From UHGV virus genome UHGV-0236300: a stretch of DNA of 64,000 nt; one strand, written 5' to 3'. Numbering within the stretch: position 1 is the first letter of the stretch; every line of letters starts with the position of its first letter. The notes below the pieces were generated by a model. That model saw only the letters and a program-made list of their open reading frames with translations. It made no database searches and was not told the DNA's origin. Of the stretch, positions 3,772 through 63,618 are shown piece by piece. A program made the translations under genes and the position numbers. Origin of the DNA: a virus.

Positions 3772-3832
3772 TAAGATGTGAGTATAAAGGGGAGGCACTC
3801 CTCCCCACAAAAACTAAGGAGAGCACCAAACG

Positions 3833-5176
3833 ATGAGTAAAACCAAATTAGAACTTACCTGGATAGGTAAGAACGAGCGCAAAAAGCTAGAGCCTCACAT
3901 TTTGTTAGAAGATTCGAGCAAGTCTTATTACGCCAGTAAAAAGGTGACCGAAAACGATATTTTTGATAATAAACTGATTTTTGGAGATAACTTACTGGCA
4001 TTGAAGGCACTAGAGCAAGAGTATGCAGGCAAAGTGAAGTGTGTTTACATAGACCCGCCATTCAATACCGGAAGGGATTTTGAGCACTACGATGATAGCC
4101 TGGAGCACTCCATTTGGCTGGGCTTAATGCGGGACAGATTAGAAATAATTCGTAATCTGCTAAGCGATGATGGAGTGATATTCGTTCACTTAGATGACTG
4201 CGAAATGGCTTATTTAAAAGTCTTGATGGACGAGATTTTTGGTCGTGCAAATCAGTTAAATACCATATCGATGACTACAAATTGCCCTTCAGGCTTTAAG
4301 GCAACAGGAACTACAGTTTTCTCCACAGCAAACTTTTTGCTTGTATATGCAAAAGATCGTACCAAGAAACCACTTAACAAAATCTATATACCTAAAGAGT
4401 ATGATACGGGATATAACAAATATCTATTAAACCCAGATGACCATTATAAAAGTTGGACGTGGTGCGGTATTGCCGATGCGTTTGCAAAGGCCAATGGCTA
4501 TAAAGATACAAAAGAAGCCAAGAAAAAACTGCCTGATACATTTGATGATGAATTAGCACAATTTGCAATTGATAATGCAGAACGTGTATTTCAATCCGTT
4601 GCAATTGGCGGTGGTGCCAAAATAAAGAGAAAAGAAACTATCGAGAAGTCAAAGAAAGATAGGGATAAGGTTTATGTACATCCAAATGAGGATGTCGAAG
4701 GCTTTTATATCGCAAATGGTAGGCAAATGGTCTTTTATTCCAATAGGCTTTTGGAAATTGACGGCAAGATGCAGCCTGCTGAACTAATAACTGATGTTTG
4801 GACTGACATTAGTTGGAATGGAATAGCAAATGAAGGCGGCGTTAGTTTCAAAAATGGAAAAAAGCCCGAAGCGCTTTTGAAGCGAATTTTCGAAATGTGT
4901 ACGCGAGAAGGAGATTTAGTCTTGGATTCATTCGGCGGTTCAGGAACTACTGCTGCCGTAGCTCACAAGATGAAAAGACGTTGGATCTCTGTCGAGTTAG
5001 GTGATCATTGTCATACCCATATCATCCCGCGCTTGCAAAAAGTGATCGATGGCAAAGATCAAAGTGGTATTTCTAAATCTGTAAACTGGCAAGGTGGCGG
5101 GGGCTTTCGCTATTACAAACTTGCCCCGAACTTAGTTATGAAAGATAAGCTTGACTCAGAAGAAGATTTAGAGTAA
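3833..5176 (+). CDS. DNA methyltransferase, beta-class amino-MTase (N6-adenine or N4-cytosine)
   Basis: Motif IV IDPPFNT precedes motif I VLDSFGGSGTT (beta-class order); SD AAGGAGA 10 nt upstream. Confidence 0.8.
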   Translation: MSKTKLELTWIGKNERKKLEPHILLEDSSKSYYASKKVTENDIFDNKLIFGDNLLALKALEQEYAGKVKCVYIDPPFNTGRDFEHYDDSLEHSIWLGLMRDRLEIIRNLLSDDGVIFVHLDDCEMAYLKVLMDEIFGRANQLNTISMTTNCPSGFKATGTTVFSTANFLLVYAKDRTKKPLNKIYIPKEYDTGYNKYLLNPDDHYKSWTWCGIADAFAKANGYKDTKEAKKKLPDTFDDELAQFAIDNAERVFQSVAIGGGAKIKRKETIEKSKKDRDKVYVHPNEDVEGFYIANGRQMVFYSNRLLEIDGKMQPAELITDVWTDISWNGIANEGGVSFKNGKKPEALLKRIFEMCTREGDLVLDSFGGSGTTAAVAHKMKRRWISVELGDHCHTHIIPRLQKVIDGKDQSGISKSVNWQGGGGFRYYKLAPNLVMKDKLDSEEDLE

Positions 5177-5478: not shown

Positions 5479-5539
5479 AGTCCTATCTGGATGCAGCGAC
5501 GACAGCGGCAGCATTTGCTGAAGAAGTAGGAGGCTTCTA

Positions 5540-31132: not shown

Positions 31133-31158
31133 AGTAAAAAGAGGGGCCAAGACCCCTC
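31133..31158 (-). terminator. rho-independent terminator (minus strand)
   Basis: On the minus strand GAGGGG-TCTTGG-CCCCTC hairpin followed by TTTTTACTAT. Confidence 0.6.
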
Positions 31159-41840: not shown

Positions 41841-41865
41841 ATCATAAAAGCCCTCCGAAGAGGGC
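41841..41865 (-). terminator. rho-independent terminator (minus strand)
   Basis: On the minus strand GCCCTC-TTCG-GAGGGC followed by TTTTATGAT, directly after the ClpP-like gene stop. Confidence 0.6.
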
Positions 41866-41879
41866 TTTAAGATTAATGT

Positions 41880-43302: not shown

Positions 43303-43401
43303 ACTGTCATTCTCCTTGCCTTGTTCGATAATATCTAAAACTTATCCGTTTGTCAACAATTGTTTTAGGTATTTAAGGGTGGAATAAACCACCCTTTTGT
43401 A

Positions 43402-44228: not shown

Positions 44229-44579
44229 TTACTGCAACAGTTTTTCAATAGCCGCTTCCATGCTGCTTGCAACAGCCTGAACTCGGATATTCATCTCTTC
44301 TTGGCGGATCAGCTCCTTAAGCTCTTTAACGGTAAATTCTTTAGAGAAACCTTCCACCATAATCTTGTGCAAGGCTTCTTGCGTGTCTACTTGCAAGAAC
44401 TTTTCCAGTTTGTTGGCAGAGGCCTCTAAATCGGCCCGAATACGTGGGTCATCTGTTCGGTTCAGCATTAGGCGTAAGCCATCAAGATTGGTAGAAATAG
44501 CGTCTGCATGTTGAGTAACCAACCGTGGCAAAATGAGATCTACAAACTTACTGGCTAAATCAATACGCTCTTGTGTCAC
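44229..44579 (-). CDS. hypothetical protein
   Basis: ORF with GTG start overlapping the upstream small ORF stop. Confidence 0.5.
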   Translation of the reverse strand: MTQERIDLASKFVDLILPRLVTQHADAISTNLDGLRLMLNRTDDPRIRADLEASANKLEKFLQVDTQEALHKIMVEGFSKEFTVKELKELIRQEEMNIRVQAVASSMEAAIEKLLQ

Positions 44580-44689
44580 TGTTGCACCCCCTCTTCATCT
44601 TCATGATATTTCTTTTCACGCTTGTGTTTTTTCTTAAGCTCAAGCGCAATCTCTTTCTTGTACGCCTTCTTCAAGGCTTTTTTAGCCAT
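44576..44689 (-). CDS. small Lys-rich protein (37 aa)
   Basis: ORF below the track cut-off; strong SD GGAGGTG; MAKKALKKAYKKEIALELKKKHKREKK... Confidence 0.35.
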   Translation of the reverse strand: MAKKALKKAYKKEIALELKKKHKREKKYHEDEEGVQQ

Positions 44690-44751
44690 TTGGCACCTCC
44701 TCTGCTTTCATTATGATAATTATAACCAACTTATCAAAGCTTTGTCAACGA

Positions 44752-45225
44752 TTAGTCAACCTGAACCCAACCGCCTGCTACCTTTTTAAACATTCTTTGG
44801 TTATCGCTGCCTCGGAATGGTTTCTTTGTTGGTAAATCTTTTACATACTTTCCATCAATGACGATATCAGCCAGTTTAAGAACATCACTAGAGATATGCT
44901 CAAATGTGAACCCAGTATACACAAGAATAGTTTTCTTGTCACCAAACTTTTCCTTAATTCTCCTCATAAGGTCTATAATACCTGGCTCATTATAAGGAGC
45001 CAAAGGCTCTCCACCAAGTAAAGAAATACCGCATACAGATTCATTGTCTAAATCCGACAAAATTTTCTGCAAATCTTCTTCGGTGAACTCCCTTCCTTTA
45101 TCTTTTGACCAAAATGCTTGATTAAAGCAACCAGGACAAGCGTGTGGGCACCCAGATACCCACAAAGCTGTCCTAATGCCTGGCCCCTCGGTGTAAGATA
45201 TCTCTGTATACCCGACAATATTCAT
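44752..45225 (-). CDS. nrdG: anaerobic ribonucleotide reductase activating protein (radical SAM)
   Basis: CPHACPGCFN (CxxxCxxC radical-SAM cluster motif); directly downstream of nrdD; track ORF 44752..45243, start set at MNIVGYT. Confidence 0.8.
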   Translation of the reverse strand: MNIVGYTEISYTEGPGIRTALWVSGCPHACPGCFNQAFWSKDKGREFTEEDLQKILSDLDNESVCGISLLGGEPLAPYNEPGIIDLMRRIKEKFGDKKTILVYTGFTFEHISSDVLKLADIVIDGKYVKDLPTKKPFRGSDNQRMFKKVAGGWVQVD

Positions 45226-45338
45226 ACGTACTCCGCATCGCATTTAGGACAATGCCAAATAAAATCGTCCAGTGCCTTACACCAACGAAGATTGCAATGA
45301 CAACCACACTTGCAAATTTTATAAATACCTGTAGACAT
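45222..45338 (-). CDS. small Cys-rich zinc-ribbon protein (38 aa)
   Basis: ORF below the track cut-off between nrdD and nrdG; SD GGAGGTG; CKCGCHC...CPKC; stop overlaps the nrdG start. Confidence 0.4.
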   Translation of the reverse strand: MSTGIYKICKCGCHCNLRWCKALDDFIWHCPKCDAEYV

Positions 45339-45401
45339 ATTGCACCTCCTAGTTTACTGTGTGACAACAATATGCCACATCCTTGTGACTTTTGTCAAGT
45401 A

Positions 45402-47522
45402 TCAGCAACCACAACTTCCGTAGTGCTTAACCCGTTCTATAACCTCAGCCTGCTTACCCTTATTGTAAGGGCGGGAGTTTGGACTAGACAGATACCCGGA
45501 TACGCGTCTGATCACACTGATCGTTCCTTCTTCATGGTTTCCACACTCTGGGCATACAAAGCCTTTAGCTGTTGCACTGAACTCGCCAGAGAATCCACAC
45601 TTAAGACATTTATCCACAGGCTGGTTAATACCAAAATACATAATGTGTTTATACCCGAAATCGACAAGAGCTTCTAAAGCATCTAAGTTGTTTTTCAGGT
45701 TAGGTGTTTCTATGTATCCAATGTTGCCGCCAGAAGAGATCATAGCAAAACCTTCCTCATACTTCCACTTGTCAAAAGGTGAGCTATTGATCCACACGGG
45801 TTGGTGGAAACTGTTGGTAAGGTATTCGTGCTCGTGCTTCAACACTTCAGGATATTCACGATCTAGACATGTTGCAGCCTTATAGCACAAGCTCTCTGAA
45901 GGAGTGCCGTACAAGCTGAATGCCAGACCACTTTCTTTTTTGTACCGATCACAAGCATCTTTCATGTGTTGAAGGATCCCAAGAGCTAAGGACTTGTCTC
46001 CCTCTCTGCCTAAAATCTGGCAGGTTTCATACACACCAATATACCCAATACTTATGGAAGCATACCCGTCATAGAAGAGTTTATCAATACTCTCTTCAGG
46101 ATCCAGGCGAGCAAGGGCCCCTTCACACCACATGATGGGGTTCTGCCCTGCCTTTGTTCCTTTTAGACGGTTAACTCTTACAAGGTGAGCCTCGTATGCC
46201 AGATCCAAGTACTCGTCAAGAACTGCAAAGAAATCAACACCTTCCGTTTTAGCTTTTGCCGCAATCATTGGTAGGTTAAGGCTAACAACACCCAAGTTGA
46301 ATCTGCCAAGGTATTTTTCATCACCCTCCGAGGTAACGTATTTGCCAAGGAACGACCTACATCCCATGCTTGTTACTTTGCCATCTGTTGAACCTGTCAC
46401 TTTACGATTTAGCGGAACAGAAACAAAGTCAGGATAAATCCGCTCTGCAGAGCATTCTAGGGCCAATCGTTTCAAATCATAGTTAGGATCCCCAGGGTTC
46501 ATGTTGACACCATCTTCTAAGAAGAACAGCACTTTAGGGAACACAGGCGTGATCCGTTCTTCACCAAGACCCATTTTGTGGACTTTCAAGTAGTTTTTGG
46601 TAATCATTCTACCAAAGACCGAAGTATCCAGCCCTAAACTTAATGTGATGAATGGGGTTTGCCCGTTGACAGAAGTTAACGTATTGATTTGGTAGAGCAA
46701 AGTTTGCATACTATCAAACACGTCTTTATCGGTCATTTGCATTGCAACAGTCTCAGCATCTGGCAACCAATGTTCCTGACAAAATTTAAGGTTCTTCTCA
46801 TAAGTTGCTTCAGCATATTGTGCCAGATAATGATCAATATGGCTCATAGTTTGACCACCATATTGAGCACTAGCTACTGCACTAGAGATTTGACTAAGGA
46901 TTGTTGTTGCAACCCCTATTGACTTCGGCTTACTGACATGGGCGTTGCCAATGTTGAATCCGTTTTCCAGCATATCCGGATAATTTACCAAACAACAGTT
47001 TGTTAACGGACTGATCAGGTAGTCAAGATCATGCACATGGATGAAGCCCTTGTTGTGCTCTTCTGAGACACGATCTGGCAGGATCTGTGTTGATGCAAGG
47101 TGTTTGCTAAGGATGCCTGCAAGCAGGTCACGATGAGTGTGTACATGATTAGTAGGCTTATTTGCGTTTTCTTTTGTAAATTCATCACAAGTACGATCCA
47201 AAAAGCCACTAATATCTGCAAGCAGTTTTCCACCTGCCTCTCTGTTATTATCTCTTGTCTGTCTATACTGGATGTATTCTCTGGCTGCACATTTTAAACC
47301 CATATCCATAAGAGCATCTTCAACAAGGATATGGATATTTTTTACAGAGATCGTGCACTGGTCGGTTGGCAGATTGTTGGCAACAACTTCATTAACCGCG
47401 CAGGCAATCCGGTAAGCTTCTTCTTCAGTATGCCCAGACTCAAGTAAGGCGGACTCTGCCGCCTTGATCACCTTAATTCCGTTATAAAACTCTTCTCTAC
47501 CGTCCCGTTTTACAACTTTCAC
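45402..47522 (-). CDS. nrdD: anaerobic ribonucleoside-triphosphate reductase (class III)
   Basis: C-terminal zinc site CLKCG...CPECG and glycyl-radical motif RRVSGYL. Confidence 0.9.
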   Translation of the reverse strand: MKVVKRDGREEFYNGIKVIKAAESALLESGHTEEEAYRIACAVNEVVANNLPTDQCTISVKNIHILVEDALMDMGLKCAAREYIQYRQTRDNNREAGGKLLADISGFLDRTCDEFTKENANKPTNHVHTHRDLLAGILSKHLASTQILPDRVSEEHNKGFIHVHDLDYLISPLTNCCLVNYPDMLENGFNIGNAHVSKPKSIGVATTILSQISSAVASAQYGGQTMSHIDHYLAQYAEATYEKNLKFCQEHWLPDAETVAMQMTDKDVFDSMQTLLYQINTLTSVNGQTPFITLSLGLDTSVFGRMITKNYLKVHKMGLGEERITPVFPKVLFFLEDGVNMNPGDPNYDLKRLALECSAERIYPDFVSVPLNRKVTGSTDGKVTSMGCRSFLGKYVTSEGDEKYLGRFNLGVVSLNLPMIAAKAKTEGVDFFAVLDEYLDLAYEAHLVRVNRLKGTKAGQNPIMWCEGALARLDPEESIDKLFYDGYASISIGYIGVYETCQILGREGDKSLALGILQHMKDACDRYKKESGLAFSLYGTPSESLCYKAATCLDREYPEVLKHEHEYLTNSFHQPVWINSSPFDKWKYEEGFAMISSGGNIGYIETPNLKNNLDALEALVDFGYKHIMYFGINQPVDKCLKCGFSGEFSATAKGFVCPECGNHEEGTISVIRRVSGYLSSPNSRPYNKGKQAEVIERVKHYGSCGC

Positions 47523-47797
47523 TTTTTCTCTCCAAAACCATTCTTAACAAAAGAGATGAAATCGTCAGCACCACCTATGTGGAGACTGTCAAGGTTGCTT
47601 TCCAAGAAGATCTGAGGCAACGTTCTAGGAACAAATGGGCTACACTTCTCGATAAGCTCTTCTTTTGTGTATCCTTCACCCAGCGTCTTGTATACGAAAG
47701 GTATGCCTTTGCTGACTGCAAATTCTTTTGCTCTTACACAATGTGGGCAGTTATCCTTGCCGTAAATGATGATGAAAAAAGATTTTTCGCAGCTCAT
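47519..47797 (-). CDS. glutaredoxin-like protein
   Basis: CPHC active-site motif in a ~90-aa protein within the RNR cluster. Confidence 0.7.
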   Translation of the reverse strand: MSCEKSFFIIIYGKDNCPHCVRAKEFAVSKGIPFVYKTLGEGYTKEELIEKCSPFVPRTLPQIFLESNLDSLHIGGADDFISFVKNGFGEKK

Positions 47798-47800
47798 ATA

Positions 47801-48889
47801 TTAAAACTCCCAAATTTCTTCTTCAGCGTCGTTAACAGTTGTGTTGACGCGGTAGTCAGTGTTAGACATTTCCTGGTTAGCCGTCTGTTGCAGTGAAGGT
47901 TTCATCCACACCTGCATAAACGGTAGCGGGTCTTTTGTTGGCGGCACAAAGTCTTTGTCGATATTGTAGTAATCATAAATCGGTGAGCAGTTATAGTCAA
48001 CCCATTCTTTAAGTAATGGTGAGTTAAGACCTATAATTGCTCTTCCTTCGCTGAAAATATAGTCACTCCAACCGTACTCCTTGATTCGCACTTCGTCAAG
48101 AATTTCTTTTAACTCACCCTTAATCTCAAGAAAGCTTTGCTCCCATGCAGGGTCATCAAGCAGGATATCGATGATAGCAAAATCACCTTTCGAATGCAGC
48201 ATTTCATCAAGCATAATTTTTTGAACGAGTTGTGCAACTTGAACAAAAATACCTTGCTCAGCTACTGCGAACGTACATGCAAAACTTGCAATAAACTCAA
48301 TACTCTCTAGAGCTAAAAGTGCAAAAAGTGCTCTAAGGATACATTTCCGTACAACATCTTCTTCAACACTGGAAGGATCCAGTCGGTATTTTGCACCAAT
48401 AACCTCAAGCTCTTGCATATATTTGACAATAACTCCAGACCTGCTCAGCACGTTCTGGTTTTCCTGAATCTCTTCTATAATCTCACGAGCATTAGGAAGG
48501 CATTGTCTAACAATCTCTGAGTAAGTTAGTGCATGAAGAACCTCAATCTCAGACTGCTTCATCAACAAGGTGAAAAGTTCACTATTGGTGATAAATGGTG
48601 AAAACAGACAAATGATAGATCTTGCTGCAACACTGTCTGCCTCCCATTGCCACATCAGTGTCTGCACCATCACATCGTAAGTTGACTTTGAGCATGTTAC
48701 GAAATCCGAAATAGACTGTGACAGATCTACTTCGTCCTCTGCCCAATCTTGTTCTTTTTGTTTTTTGTATAGTTCAAACAGCTGTGGGTACTTTTTGTTA
48801 ATAGAGTCGTACATCCCCATCTGCTGTCCTAAAAACAGTGGATAATCACCAGTTTTATGAGCAGTGTTCTCAGTATTAAATACAGCCAT
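47801..48889 (-). CDS. nrdB: ribonucleoside-diphosphate reductase beta subunit (class Ia)
   Basis: PLFLGQQ, EIEVLHALTYSE and ALESIEFIASFACTFAVAEQG parallel E. coli NrdB; track start 48979 overlaps nrdA, start set at MAVFNTE after SD. Confidence 0.85.
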   Translation of the reverse strand: MAVFNTENTAHKTGDYPLFLGQQMGMYDSINKKYPQLFELYKKQKEQDWAEDEVDLSQSISDFVTCSKSTYDVMVQTLMWQWEADSVAARSIICLFSPFITNSELFTLLMKQSEIEVLHALTYSEIVRQCLPNAREIIEEIQENQNVLSRSGVIVKYMQELEVIGAKYRLDPSSVEEDVVRKCILRALFALLALESIEFIASFACTFAVAEQGIFVQVAQLVQKIMLDEMLHSKGDFAIIDILLDDPAWEQSFLEIKGELKEILDEVRIKEYGWSDYIFSEGRAIIGLNSPLLKEWVDYNCSPIYDYYNIDKDFVPPTKDPLPFMQVWMKPSLQQTANQEMSNTDYRVNTTVNDAEEEIWEF

Positions 48890-48929
48890 TATTCTACCTC
48901 TAAAATGGGGCCGAAGCCCCTTTTTTAAA

Positions 48930-51245
48930 TTACAGTGCACAACTTTCGCAATATGGATCTTCAACTGAACTATCTGCAATCAAAGGATAGTTCTTTCTGG
49001 TTTCATCTTCAGCCTGTTTCTTCGCGTGAAGCTCCTCTGTCAAAGAGTCACCAGCACCAACCCGAGAGTTTAAGTAATACCATGTCTTCATCCCGAATTT
49101 AGTAGCACGGATAAGATACCCCAGCTGCTCCTTCATTGAAATTTTACCATCTTTCAACTTGGTGTAATCAATATATAGGTCAGCACTGATTGCCTGTCCT
49201 GTGAATTTTTGAATCACAGCATACATATCAATCATGTCGTTAGTATCAACGTCCCAAGCCGAGGTATAATACTCTTTCAGTTCATCATATTCAGGAACGA
49301 TAAACAGCACCTGTCCTTGTGGCGACTTTTTAAAGATAATGTGCTCACGGACAGGATAAACCCCGTTAGTGGTGTTTGTTGCCAGCGAAGAGCTTTCATT
49401 AGGCATATATGCTTCAAGAACGCTATTACGTAGCCCACCATTTTCAATGATTTCTTTACGTAACCCTTCCCAATCCTGCTTAAGAGAAGGATCTTTCACC
49501 ACACTATCGACCTCTTTGTTATAGGTGTCGATTGGTAACCAACCATCCGGGTATTTTGTTTTATGCATCCACTCACAGACACCACGCTCTTTTGCCAATC
49601 GTAAACTTGCCTTATGCAAGCTGTAGCTGTGGAGCTCTGCAAGATCGTGAACAAGCTGTTTACTTTCAGGAGACCCGTAAGCAACCTTGTGGCTGGCAAT
49701 AAAATGTGCAACATTGGTAAGGCCAACCCCGATGGATCTGCGTTTTTTAACAGTGCTCTCCATATTTTCATACGGATATGTCATGATTTCCATAACATTG
49801 TCAATCATAAGCACAGTGTAGTATGCAACATCCTCATACTCCTCTGGGGTAACCCTTCCAGCTACAAGAGATGACAGGAAGCACAATGCAACTTCGCCAT
49901 CATCAACATCGTACTTGAAGATATTACGCATATCTGAATAGCCTTTTGTCGGGAGGGCTATTTCTGCACACAGGTTACTTGAATAGATCACATCTTTAAA
50001 AGGTGTATGTCTATTCATCTCATCTGTCCAGTATACGTACAGCCTGCCAACCTCGGTACGCTGCGTGATCAGTTCAACAGCAAGGTCTCTAGCACGGATC
50101 CATGTTTTAGGAATGCTGTCATCTTTAGCAATACGATCAACCTCTGCATCAAACTCCTCCATAGACATGGTGAAGATACCCTCATGCAGTTGAGGCGCGT
50201 GCTTATAAGAAACAAGCATCCAATCTAAATTCTTAGCCACACGGTTGATAAACGACCTATTAATACCTATAGAGTAATCCATGGTGTTGATTCTTTTTGA
50301 AGCAACAGTCATAGGGTTTCTCAAACGGATTAGCTCATCAATCTGCGGGTCCAGTGCAAGGAATGATACTGTTGCAGAACCGCCACGTGATTGTTGTCTG
50401 TTCTCCTTAACCCCAGCATCAATACCTCGATAATATGGAATCTTGCCCATATGTTTAATAGTGTTACCACGAACACCATCACCTGCAGATCTTGATGATA
50501 AATAGTATCCAATACCTGCTTGGTTAACCGTCATTGTGTATGCAACTTCACGTGCCACACCAATAGATTTTGCTGTATCGTCAGCTTTTATTACACAACA
50601 AGATGCATACCCTGTCTTGCCTGTGCGTAGACCGTTTAAGTACGGTGTCGGGGCATTGATCTTTAAGTCTGACAGATAAGTGTATAATTTTACAACATCG
50701 TCAATACGGCGTTCTTTCGGCATATTTTTCATGACAGCCATCGCTATCCCCATAAACATCATCTGTGGAGATTCGAACAGGGTGTCTTTAAGAGTATCCT
50801 TGATCCCGTATTTGTCTCGAAACTGTTTAAGGACTGCATAGCCATAACCAAGGTCTTTACTGTGATCAATAACAGTGTCTAAAGTGTTTAACTCGGTAAA
50901 GCTATAACCCATATCCTCCCAATACCCTTTATCAACCATGGTATTGTAAAATGATGGTAAGGAAGGGATCTTTGTGAATCCTCCAAAAGCCTCTTTATAA
51001 ATCTGACCGATAAGAACACGACCAGCCATACGAGAATGTGCTTCGTCCTTACGGCTAACACAGGAGTCTATAATAGCTTGGTTAACTTCTTTGGTTGTGC
51101 ATCCATCATACAGCCGTTTGTATGCATCAAGTGCAATATGTGACCAATTGCCGTTACCGTCGTCACCGAAAATAGCTGCCTTATTTAAACGTTCCGGATC
51201 GAATGCCACTTCACATCCGTTGCTTTTAATTACCTTAGTGATCAA
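48930..51245 (-). CDS. nrdA: ribonucleoside-diphosphate reductase alpha subunit (class Ia)
   Basis: N-terminal ATP-cone-like segment, active-site NLCAEI, C-terminal CESCAL cysteine pair. Confidence 0.9.
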   Translation of the reverse strand: MITKVIKSNGCEVAFDPERLNKAAIFGDDGNGNWSHIALDAYKRLYDGCTTKEVNQAIIDSCVSRKDEAHSRMAGRVLIGQIYKEAFGGFTKIPSLPSFYNTMVDKGYWEDMGYSFTELNTLDTVIDHSKDLGYGYAVLKQFRDKYGIKDTLKDTLFESPQMMFMGIAMAVMKNMPKERRIDDVVKLYTYLSDLKINAPTPYLNGLRTGKTGYASCCVIKADDTAKSIGVAREVAYTMTVNQAGIGYYLSSRSAGDGVRGNTIKHMGKIPYYRGIDAGVKENRQQSRGGSATVSFLALDPQIDELIRLRNPMTVASKRINTMDYSIGINRSFINRVAKNLDWMLVSYKHAPQLHEGIFTMSMEEFDAEVDRIAKDDSIPKTWIRARDLAVELITQRTEVGRLYVYWTDEMNRHTPFKDVIYSSNLCAEIALPTKGYSDMRNIFKYDVDDGEVALCFLSSLVAGRVTPEEYEDVAYYTVLMIDNVMEIMTYPYENMESTVKKRRSIGVGLTNVAHFIASHKVAYGSPESKQLVHDLAELHSYSLHKASLRLAKERGVCEWMHKTKYPDGWLPIDTYNKEVDSVVKDPSLKQDWEGLRKEIIENGGLRNSVLEAYMPNESSSLATNTTNGVYPVREHIIFKKSPQGQVLFIVPEYDELKEYYTSAWDVDTNDMIDMYAVIQKFTGQAISADLYIDYTKLKDGKISMKEQLGYLIRATKFGMKTWYYLNSRVGAGDSLTEELHAKKQAEDETRKNYPLIADSSVEDPYCESCAL

Positions 51246-55882: not shown

Positions 55883-55928
55883 AGTGCCTCCAAAAATGAA
55901 AAGGGAGGCGCAAGCCTCCCTCTACTTG

Positions 55929-63584: not shown

Positions 63585-63618
63585 TTCCGAAACAAGTAAA
63601 GCCGGGATCGCCCCGGCT
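63585..63618 (-). terminator. candidate rho-independent terminator (minus strand)
   Basis: On the minus strand AGCCGGG-GCGAT-CCCGGCT hairpin followed by TTACTTGTTTC. Confidence 0.45.

Follow-up and report, generated by a model that had tools for sequence, protein, structure and literature searches.

A conserved, probably translated cysteine-rich small open reading frame between nrdD and nrdG and a C(UUCG)G hairpin between nrdA and nrdB in an rV5-like phage genome

Ribonucleotide reductase (RNR) operons can carry small redox or metal proteins in addition to the enzyme subunits. In particular, the 2Fe-2S ferredoxin YfaE is encoded after E. coli nrdAB (class Ia), and the flavodoxin NrdI belongs to class Ib; such proteins are dispensable in some lineages, as a helper of the class III enzyme NrdD or its activase NrdG would be. 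We know of no accessory protein of the YfaE or NrdI kind for class III RNR. In this work, we analyse a stretch of 64,000 nucleotides of the virus genome UHGV-0236300 (hereafter "the window"), in which genes of a class Ia and a class III RNR lie together between positions 44,752 and 51,245. We focus on two elements of this region: a 38-codon cysteine-rich open reading frame (ORF) between nrdD and nrdG, and a hairpin between nrdA and nrdB.

A comparable arrangement is described in phage T4, where the HNH gene mobC lies between nrdG and nrdD; cassettes at such junctions have no promoter of their own, and are expressed from upstream promoters with overlapping starts (PMC2988022). T4 mobC and SegH of T4 relatives are free-standing mobile ORFs at the same nrdD/nrdG junction as the small ORF of the window; the latter, however, encodes a microprotein that has no nuclease domain and is far too small for a homing endonuclease. 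T4 also has a weak terminator between nrdA and nrdB, at the 5' end of mobE, at which about 30% of transcripts end and which has been proposed to coordinate NrdB with NrdA synthesis (PMC2988022). Hairpins with a CUUCGG loop were first described in T4 mRNA; a review presents them as proposed nucleation sites that fold fast, and states that the loop is bound by no proteins (PMC4371310).

The small ORF of the window occupies positions 45222-45338 on the minus strand, and its predicted product, MSTGIYKICKCGCHCNLRWCKALDDFIWHCPKCDAEYV, has 38 residues, seven of which are Cys. It is preceded by a Shine-Dalgarno (SD) sequence, AGGAGGT, at 45344-45350, which ends 5 nt ahead of the ATG, and its TGA stop overlaps the nrdG start in the form ATGA. 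The initial annotation, made from the letters of the window, had described exactly such an ORF, with a strong SD and coupled to nrdG, and our reading bears this out. We read the ORF in 17 loci, 16 of which have it intact; the SD is present in every context. For 11 of these loci, substitution statistics were calculated on a 28-codon core. Between lineages, the synonymous rate (dS) is saturated (0.4 to >2), the nonsynonymous rate (dN) is 0.03-0.12, and dN/dS is mostly 0.03-0.1. The variable columns of the 28 codons are distributed over codon positions 1, 2 and 3 as 9, 3 and 19, respectively, and the Cys codons alternate between TGT and TGC among the homologues. Across the family, 27 residues are invariant, including all seven Cys and the residues of NLRW, LDD and IW. 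In a sister lineage, represented by loci L007, L008 and L019, NrdG is 56% identical to that of the window, and the microprotein core is about 85% identical. The product also aligns with the family PHROG 20137 over its full length, residues 1-38 falling on positions 1-38 of the profile (E = 6.3e-30). Because of the dN/dS pattern, the third-position variation, the SD, the invariant Cys and the PHROG match, we consider it almost certain that the 38-codon ORF is a genuine gene, the protein product of which is under strong purifying selection. Conservation in related phages, which the initial annotation had proposed as a check, is indeed found, and the ORF carries every sequence hallmark of translation.

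Existing annotations suggest another reading, namely that the ORF is no gene and that its conservation comes from the overlapping gp109 frame of rV5, from a terminator annotated in Murica, or from an nrdG promoter. In fact, the RefSeq record of rV5 annotates the other frame, and the Murica record places a terminator inside the region. However, the codon-position pattern and the TGT/TGC alternation fit the Cys-rich frame only, and therefore neither the gp109 frame nor the Murica terminator explains the conservation. The latter was rejected as an element in its own right: its palindrome, TTGCAA...TTGCAA, is a by-product of Cys-Lys and Cys-Asn codons. Moreover, the limits of the ORF are also the limits of a DNA segment moved to the podovirus ACG-C91 (see below). 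The non-coding reading is effectively refuted by the substitution statistics, and we regard it as barely tenable.

The ORF is annotated as a coding sequence (CDS) in many GenBank relatives, is missing from the Murica and nimi records, and is given in the wrong frame (gp109) in the rV5 RefSeq record. The term "unannotated" used in the initial annotation is therefore right for some records, but not in general, since PHROG 20137 and the CDS of many relatives already cover it. The label "ribonucleotide reductase" carried by PHROG 20137 is an annotation by neighbourhood, and we found no paper containing the peptide motif of the microprotein. Note that, within the ORF, an alignment of six diverged sequences shows no change in the codons for Leu and Arg of the NLRWC motif (CTT CGT; 45276-45289, minus strand), although each of these amino acids has six codons and the synonymous sites nearby are saturated. 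Codon preference could be the cause, or else an additional constraint at the nucleotide level.

The family is small. An exhaustive HMMER pass through 1.84 billion representative proteins, clustered at 50% identity, gave only three real microprotein clusters; two further matches, P0001 and P0004, were discarded as repetitive false positives. The 54-residue homologue was also used as a query for homologous proteins. By tblastn against 50,697 phage records, the microprotein was found in one podovirus and about 120 Vequintavirus genomes. When IMG/VR, JGI metagenomes and GTDB genomes were scanned with degenerate DNA patterns, only Vequintavirus and the sister lineage came up, the sole new match being L019 of the sister lineage; L024, a 3-hydroxyanthranilate dioxygenase, and L025, a TrxR-like flavoprotein, were chance matches to WHCPxCD. 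A hidden Markov model (HMM) of the family detected no paralogue or distant relative in the window or in any of the fetched loci. Three forms of the microprotein occur: a 38-residue form with CKCGCxC, a 41-residue form with CKHCGCxC (typing phage 14 and SophiaRose), and a form of 53-54 residues with a Lys/Glu-rich N-terminal extension. The sister lineage consists of phages of roughly 136 kb that are represented by metagenomes alone.

In every myovirus carrier genome read, the ORF lies between nrdD and nrdG. The podovirus copy, in Vectrevirus ACG-C91, is unannotated and lies between a gene for a DUF3310 "nucleotide kinase" and a DNA ligase gene, to which it is ATGA-coupled. Here, DNA homology extends from the ATG to a few bases past the stop at 80-87% identity; since the limits of homology are those of the ORF, the transferred unit is the ORF itself. 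The small ORF behaves as a self-contained cassette that is confined to Vequintavirus and one sister lineage and has been copied once, ORF-exact, into a podovirus. In rV5-type genomes, in which other genes have been inserted before nrdG, the microprotein gene is still undamaged, with a TAA stop of its own 380 nt ahead of nrdG.

What kind of protein the ORF would encode can be approached from its Cys pattern and from structure prediction. The layout of a zinc ribbon, with two Cys knuckles some 15-20 residues apart, is present: the 41-, 53- and 54-residue forms have CKDCG or CKHCG followed by CPKC, and the window form has CKCG (CxC) and then CPKC. In an AlphaFold2 (AF2) model, three strands (residues 16-20, 25-30 and 35-37) are predicted at modest confidence, the mean predicted local distance difference test (pLDDT) score being only 62; the CPKC knuckle falls between strands 2 and 3, and the Cys cluster lies ahead of strand 1. 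The top Foldseek matches of this model are nearly all zinc ribbons (Rpb9, a NudC-type ribbon, ZifS and HVO_0758), with a template modelling (TM) score of about 0.6 and a root-mean-square deviation of 1.1-1.4 Å, and weak HMM matches go only to zinc-ribbon families (Zn_ribbon_NUD, E = 0.0029, for one of ten homologues). The low pLDDT is one of several points that tell against such an assignment. No Foldseek match is significant (E of 1.2 or worse for all), the window microprotein has no Pfam or NCBIfam hit, and the HMM match in the PDB to the Haloferax CPxCG microprotein is not significant either (E = 0.18). The idea that the microprotein is homologous to the C-terminal zinc ribbon of NrdD, either as a duplicate or as a ribbon provided in trans, was rejected as well, since hhalign gave it a probability of only 10%.

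The best, though weak, matches in both sequence and structure are HVO_0758 of Haloferax (PDB 8Q5B), ZifS of Thermus (PDB 8YOZ), Rpb9 and the N-terminal ribbon of NudC. Like HVO_0758 and ZifS, the microprotein is a stand-alone protein of similar size with CxxCG...CPxC knuckles; unlike zinc fingers of that type, its family has seven invariant Cys rather than four, and the first knuckle in the window is CxC. The term "zinc ribbon" used by the initial annotation is apt for the layout of the knuckles, whereas neither a significant sequence or structure match nor a CxxC first knuckle in the window backs it. As a prediction, a metal-binding, zinc-ribbon-like fold is plausible, though unproven, and we consider it fairly likely. 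The protein would then be a small three-stranded module with one metal bound between a C-terminal CPxC knuckle and an N-terminal cluster, which is CxCxCxC here and CxxCxCxC in other lineages. A ribbon needs only four Cys, and the other three invariant ones could serve a second metal site or an Fe-S cluster.

The arrangement upstream of the ORF also deserves description. In the 63-nt spacer between nrdD and the small ORF, a sigma-70-like promoter candidate, TTGACA-18-(TG)gCATATT, is found at 45369-45398 on the minus strand. Among 12 Vequintavirus loci, it has one variable site in 31 nt, compared with about 10 in the next 30 nt. A weak hairpin within it (GUCACA-AGGA-UGUGGC) is not significant (z = -1.5). 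If active, this candidate might allow the small ORF to be transcribed together with nrdG as a unit of their own. In the sister lineage, a terminator-like hairpin is found at the same place.

We propose that the microprotein works with the anaerobic RNR. It would share an mRNA with NrdG, translation of the two being coupled in most cases through the ATGA stop/start overlap, and would most likely be a metal-binding auxiliary partner of anaerobic RNR activation, the enzyme being either that of the phage or that of its E. coli host. E. coli is the recorded host of every carrier read, and it encodes an nrdDG of its own. The step concerned would be the action of the NrdG activase on the Zn-ribbon/glycyl-radical domain of NrdD. 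Several observations point in this direction: two lineages have the ORF at an identical place, immediately 5' of nrdG; it overlaps nrdG by 4 nt; a conserved promoter-like block stands ahead of the ORF-nrdG pair; and a Cys-rich metal protein fits thematically beside a [4Fe-4S] activase and its Zn-ribbon substrate domain. For the explanation as a whole, which includes the reading of the nrdA/nrdB hairpin given below, we estimate a probability of about 0.4. That the microprotein works with NrdG/NrdD is, taken by itself, somewhat short of an even chance. In its most specific form, the proposal makes the microprotein an unrecognised class III RNR accessory factor, a tiny metal or Fe-S protein on NrdG or on the NrdD domain of phage or host; such a protein might serve in cluster loading, electron delivery or radical installation, and would be for class III what YfaE is for class Ia or NrdI for class Ib. 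We regard this specific form as rather unlikely. Unlike a true relative of these proteins, the microprotein has no homology to YfaE or NrdI, and its link to RNR is one of gene position only.

The distribution of the ORF counts against such a link in several ways. In Seunavirus SPLA5a, nrdD overlaps nrdG directly with no ORF between, although the C-terminus of NrdD is near-identical, and the more distant phage L006 is likewise without the ORF. In about 33 Vequintavirus genomes including rV5, gp110 and gp111 separate the microprotein gene from nrdG, and the 5' half of nrdG is replaced. In ACG-C91, no nrdDG is found within the 8 kb read. The ORF variants have been shuffled against the nrdG variants by recombination (typing phage 14 and rV5), and the nrdD/small-ORF junction receives other inserts, namely HNH genes in L007 and L019 and an insert of 386 residues in typing phage 14. 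Phage nimi (L012, at about 5525-5527) has a TGC to TGA nonsense change at Cys9, the sole disrupted copy in the 17 loci, which is either a natural knockout or a sequencing error. Finally, the presence of the ORF does not track a Cys-pair tail that Vequintavirus NrdD carries (see below), since L007 and L008 have the ORF and no such tail. The link to nrdD and nrdG implied by the initial annotation is thus weakened by the absence from Seunavirus, the uncoupling in rV5-type genomes and the podovirus copy with no nrdDG nearby. Because the ORF is absent from Seunavirus and uncoupled from nrdG in about 33 rV5-type genomes, and because its family is tiny, the microprotein is evidently not a core RNR subunit.

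Much of the same evidence can be read differently: the microprotein may have nothing to do with RNR and be a mobile, moron-like zinc finger whose target is a different protein, or a nucleic acid, of host or phage; it might then take part in host takeover or replication, for instance. In this case, the nrdD/nrdG junction would be a tolerated landing site, and coupling to nrdG merely the way in which promoter-less cassettes get expressed. The ORF-exact transfer to ACG-C91, where the ORF is ATGA-coupled to the ligase gene, agrees with this, although only one genome has the copy, which may have arrived recently as a passenger. Moreover, there are effectively only two independent insertion contexts, both of which are early regions of nucleotide or DNA metabolism, so that the context is compatible with a role in nucleotide metabolism. 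That Seunavirus and L006 do without the ORF despite closely similar NrdD and NrdG, and that the ORF remains intact though uncoupled from nrdG in rV5-type genomes, also suit a cassette with a purpose of its own. The junction is evidently open to such elements, since it also holds the HNH genes, the 386-residue insert and gp111, a gene shared with Rtp-like siphoviruses, and since T4 has mobC at the same junction, where free-standing cassettes use upstream promoters and overlapping starts (PMC2988022). However, the mobile ORFs mostly insert upstream of the small ORF, and only gp110/gp111 separates it from nrdG. The protein itself gives a divided picture: the Lys/Glu-rich tail of the sister lineage is typical of nucleic-acid or protein binders, whereas seven invariant Cys suit a redox or metal enzyme partner better than a generic binder. 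We consider this reading about as probable as the proposed role in RNR activation.

A further possibility is that the ORF is a translated leader that feeds ribosomes to the nrdG start by termination-reinitiation and so sets the output of NrdG, its peptide having little function. The ATGA overlap with nrdG in most genomes, the location of the nrdG SD (GGAG) within the last codons of the small ORF, and the much stronger SD of the small ORF would all fit. Nevertheless, 27 invariant residues including seven Cys at a dN/dS of 0.03-0.1 are unexpected for a leader, and the ORF is intact also where its TAA falls 380 nt before nrdG and where it stands ahead of a ligase gene. We therefore regard the leader as very improbable.

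Some details of the insertions around the microprotein gene are worth recording. The rV5 insertion (L011, 5618-6005) contains a 34-residue Lys-rich ORF and the 78-residue gp111, which is mislabelled as "minor capsid protein"; its relatives in Rtp-like siphoviruses are 50-70% identical. Protein P0005 is a chimera of a microprotein N-terminus and a gp111-like C-terminus. HNH-type and other inserts in or near nrdD are located at 1588-2541, 3806-4600 and 5279-5971 in L007, at 3399-3908 in L019 and at 4279-5439 in L009, and occur in FV3-type records too. In L007, nrdD is split into up to three pieces, and the second split is a 264-residue ORF with no Pfam hit. In the loci read, the inserts sit upstream of the microprotein gene, with the rV5-type gp110/gp111 cassette as the only one that separates this gene from nrdG.

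The second element, the hairpin between nrdA and nrdB, has the sequence GGGGC-UUCG-GCCCC and is located at 48907-48920 on the minus strand. It is a C(UUCG)G hairpin with an all-GC stem of 5 bp, standing between A6 (5') and AUUUUA (3'). A gap of 9 nt separates it from the stop of nrdA (48930-48932), and one of 6 nt from the SD of nrdB downstream (48896-48900). Together with its A/U flanks (26 nt), it is predicted to fold at -11.6 kcal/mol, including flanking A-U pairs (z = -2.6). In the 64 kb, only two CUUCGG hairpins with a stem of at least 5 bp are present, both of them intergenic and on the transcribed strand. The hairpin is invariant in 11 Vequintavirus loci, in which the preceding A-run (3 to 6 nt) and the following spacer vary. 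Furthermore, the identical 14-mer is found between nrdA and nrdB in Seunavirus SPLA5a and in nine IMG/VR contigs, in which NrdB is 69-79% identical and the flanks have diverged. Its rarity, folding energy and identity amid diverged flanks indicate that the hairpin is no chance occurrence. In Justusliebigvirus muut, whose NrdB is 50% identical, nrdA is immediately followed by a stem-loop of the sequence GGGGG-CUUUGU-CCCCC; an nrdA/nrdB spacer of this kind is lacking in ICP1 and Felix O1-like phages.

The other CUUCGG hairpin of the window, AAAGCCCUC-UUCG-GAGGGCUUU, is located at 41847-41868 on the minus strand, where it separates the genes of a ClpP-like protease and a methyltransferase. With its stem of 9 bp (-15.3 kcal/mol, z = -3.9), it has the look of a classic bidirectional terminator, and it is annotated as one in Murica. 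Additional intergenic GC hairpins are located at 43375-43396, 55902-55921, 63600-63618 and 31141-31158.

We suppose that an exceptionally stable C(UUCG)G stem-loop would form at the 3' end of nrdA and act on RNA. Its probable role is that of a weak terminator, a barrier to 3'-exonucleases, or both, as a result of which the nrdA message would outlast or outnumber the nrdB-grx-nrdD message. As in T4, a GC-rich tetraloop hairpin stands directly after nrdA in a polycistronic RNR transcript. There are differences, however: the two are not related in sequence, and T4 has a middle promoter for nrdB downstream of its terminator, whereas the spacer in the window is only 40 nt long with no promoter seen in it, its U-tract is short (AUUUUA), and termination is only predicted here. 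The "extraordinarily stable" C(UUCG)G hairpins of T4 share the CUUCGG loop, the C:G closing pair and the position between cistrons on the mRNA strand, but they represent a generic structural motif and not a family with a single defined function.

Several observations are unfavourable to termination or message protection by the hairpin. The tail after the stem, AUUUUAGA, has only 4 U in 8 nt, fewer than a standard terminator requires on the coding strand; in fact, the terminator scan calls the site on the non-coding (plus) strand only. Although a U-rich tail follows the stem in most lineages (UAUUUUUU or GUUUUU in Seunavirus-type loci), L033 keeps the hairpin with no U-tract. The stem never varies, and hence there is no covariation, so that an RNA structure is inseparable from a conserved sequence motif; the 81-nt context folds no better than shuffled sequences (z = -1.1). 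This last value also gives no support to sequestration of the nrdB SD by the hairpin context. An antisense terminator on the plus strand was rejected, since the A-run that would provide its T-tract varies from 3 to 6 nt and no plus-strand genes are nearby.

The main alternative to a terminator or exonuclease barrier is a fold that insulates the nrdB ribosome-binding site, freeing it from nrdA coding RNA; the hairpin might also be a recognition site for a protein or nuclease. The distance to the nrdB SD is a constant 6-9 nt in all lineages, and the exact 14-mer including the loop is conserved, beyond mere pairing, but muut alters the loop and keeps the stem. The U-tract can be argued either way, L033 keeping the hairpin without it while most lineages retain a U-rich tail. 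The proposal that CUUCGG hairpins are fast-folding nucleation sites would favour insulation, whereas the statement of the same review that the loop is bound by no proteins (PMC4371310) speaks against recognition by a protein, and T4 has a proven weak terminator in the equivalent place (PMC2988022). We consider these other modes of action unlikely, and retain weak termination or message protection as the probable role. The initial annotation had suggested that the hairpin could set the ratio of alpha to beta subunits. The hairpin is present and aptly placed, and the T4 terminator is a precedent (PMC2988022), but the U-tract falls short; by analogy, the idea would seem reasonable, and because of that precedent it is not new in kind. 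In the literature, we found no transcriptome for any rV5-like phage.

Both elements are embedded in a region that is otherwise well known. Along its whole length, the 6.6-kb region shares 93-97.5% DNA identity with more than 110 Vequintavirus (rV5/FV3-like) genomes, among which Escherichia phage NHEP1 (97%) is the best match, and we take the window to belong to Vequintavirus, that is, to an rV5-like E. coli phage. Note that 19 GenBank records of the series MG0656xx, named "Campylobacter phage" (host C. jejuni), are about 93% identical over the full length of the region; these host labels look doubtful. From about 29.5 kb to 64 kb, every gene of the window is on the minus strand, and nrdA, nrdB, a glutaredoxin gene with a CPHC active site (grx), nrdD, the 38-codon ORF and nrdG follow one another contiguously in this order. 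The junctions are tight: TTGA between the upstream ORF and nrdA, a 3-nt gap between nrdB and grx, GTGA between grx and nrdD, and ATGA between the small ORF and nrdG. Transcription probably runs from a strong promoter-like site near 52013-51985 through nrdA, nrdB, grx, nrdD and the small ORF to nrdG.

The class Ia alpha subunit gene nrdA (48930-51245, minus strand, 771 residues) starts with TTG, in a TTGA overlap with the upstream ORF, and its product ends in a CESC redox pair (...YCESCAL). This product matches Pfam Ribonuc_red_lgC and lgN (barrel domain E = 8e-101) and NCBIfam TIGR02506 (500 bits against a cut-off of 341), and the 2316-nt CDS is annotated likewise in rV5, Murica and EduardKellenberger. 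At the N-terminus (MITKVIKSNG...FDPERL), Pfam shows no ATP-cone at E < 0.01, even though the alignment to the class Ia alpha model begins at residue 4; the activity-site ATP-cone of NrdA may be degenerate, unlike the clear ATP-cone of NrdD. The beta subunit gene nrdB (47801-48889, minus strand, 362 residues) has the SD GAGGT at 48896-48900, and its true start is the ATG at 48889 rather than the TTG at 48979. NrdB matches Pfam Ribonuc_red_sm (101.7 bits, cut-off 33.6), and its top NCBIfam model is class Ia beta, at 151 bits, under the 346-bit cut-off. The glutaredoxin (47519-47797, minus strand, 92 residues, ...DNCPHCV...) matches Pfam Glutaredoxin PF00462 (34.5 bits, cut-off 22.9) and PHROG 22, while the NCBIfam GrxA models stay under their cut-offs.

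The class III enzyme gene nrdD (45402-47522, minus strand, 706 residues) has a GTG start that overlaps the grx stop (GTGA). NrdD matches Pfam NRDD (E = 6e-161), Gly_radical (E = 4e-23) and ATP-cone, as well as NCBIfam NF006732 (824 bits, cut-off 657) and TIGR02487 (535 bits, cut-off 326). Its C-terminal part contains a Zn(Cys)4 ribbon (...CLKCG...CPECG...) followed by the glycyl-radical motif RVSGY (...RRVSGYL...). In Vequintavirus, NrdD ends in ...RVKHYGSC(G/S)C, with a Cys pair after the conserved RVKH (...YGSCGC in the window, at 45402-45422, minus strand); L019 ends in ...NNGDCCSIY, and Seunavirus, L007 and L008 end at RVKH(V/FH). The Cys pair may be a redox or metal tail. The gene of the radical-SAM activase of NrdD, nrdG (44752-45225, minus strand, 157 residues), encodes the cluster motif CPHACPGC (CxxxCxxC), and its product matches TIGR02491 (152 bits, cut-off 126) and Pfam Fer4_12 and Radical_SAM. 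Its start is that of MNIVGY rather than the in-frame ATG at 45243, and the N-terminus aligns from residue 1 with NrdG of the sister lineage. NrdG, NrdD and NrdA are all above the NCBIfam equivalog cut-offs.

The Pfam and NCBIfam matches and the junctions thus confirm the complete, contiguous aerobic and anaerobic RNR set with glutaredoxin that the initial annotation had described, the anaerobic part being class III and the aerobic part class Ia, for NrdB probably so. However, the set and its order were already known for rV5-like phages: annotations of rV5, Murica, EduardKellenberger, NHEP1 and many further genomes show it as well, and the RNR blocks of rV5-like GenBank genomes are identical to that of the window in gene order and content, with a DNA identity of 93-97% and no substantive difference. 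The RNR block is an ordinary rV5-type nucleotide-reduction operon, annotated already in more than 100 related genomes, and offers nothing new.

Beyond the operon, a sigma-70 promoter with all 12 consensus positions (TTGACA-18-TATAAT) is located at 44719-44748 on the minus strand and is annotated as promoter P118 in the rV5 record. It begins 4 nt past the stop of nrdG, and a strong SD and an ORF of 37 residues come next. This ORF (44576-44689, minus strand) encodes a Lys-rich protein, MAKKALKKAYKKEIALELKKK..., of PHROG 7670. A similar protein of 46 residues, MSKKTLRKAYQKELALELRGKK..., is encoded directly after nrdG in Seunavirus SPLA5a. Since both stand next to nrdG, a small basic protein has been kept there across genera.

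The analysis corrects the annotation of the microprotein gene, which is in the wrong frame in rV5, contains a false terminator in Murica, and owes its PHROG name to its neighbourhood. The hairpin after nrdA would provide a simple case for differential expression within an operon, conserved in the Vequintavirinae-like lineages Vequintavirus, Seunavirus and related uncultured contigs. The microprotein represents an orphan family that evolves far more slowly than the enzyme gene to which it is coupled. If it does not act on NrdG or NrdD, it would be one more phage zinc-finger microprotein; if it does, it would be the first accessory protein of a class III RNR known to us, and would offer a handle on how NrdG obtains its cluster or electrons.

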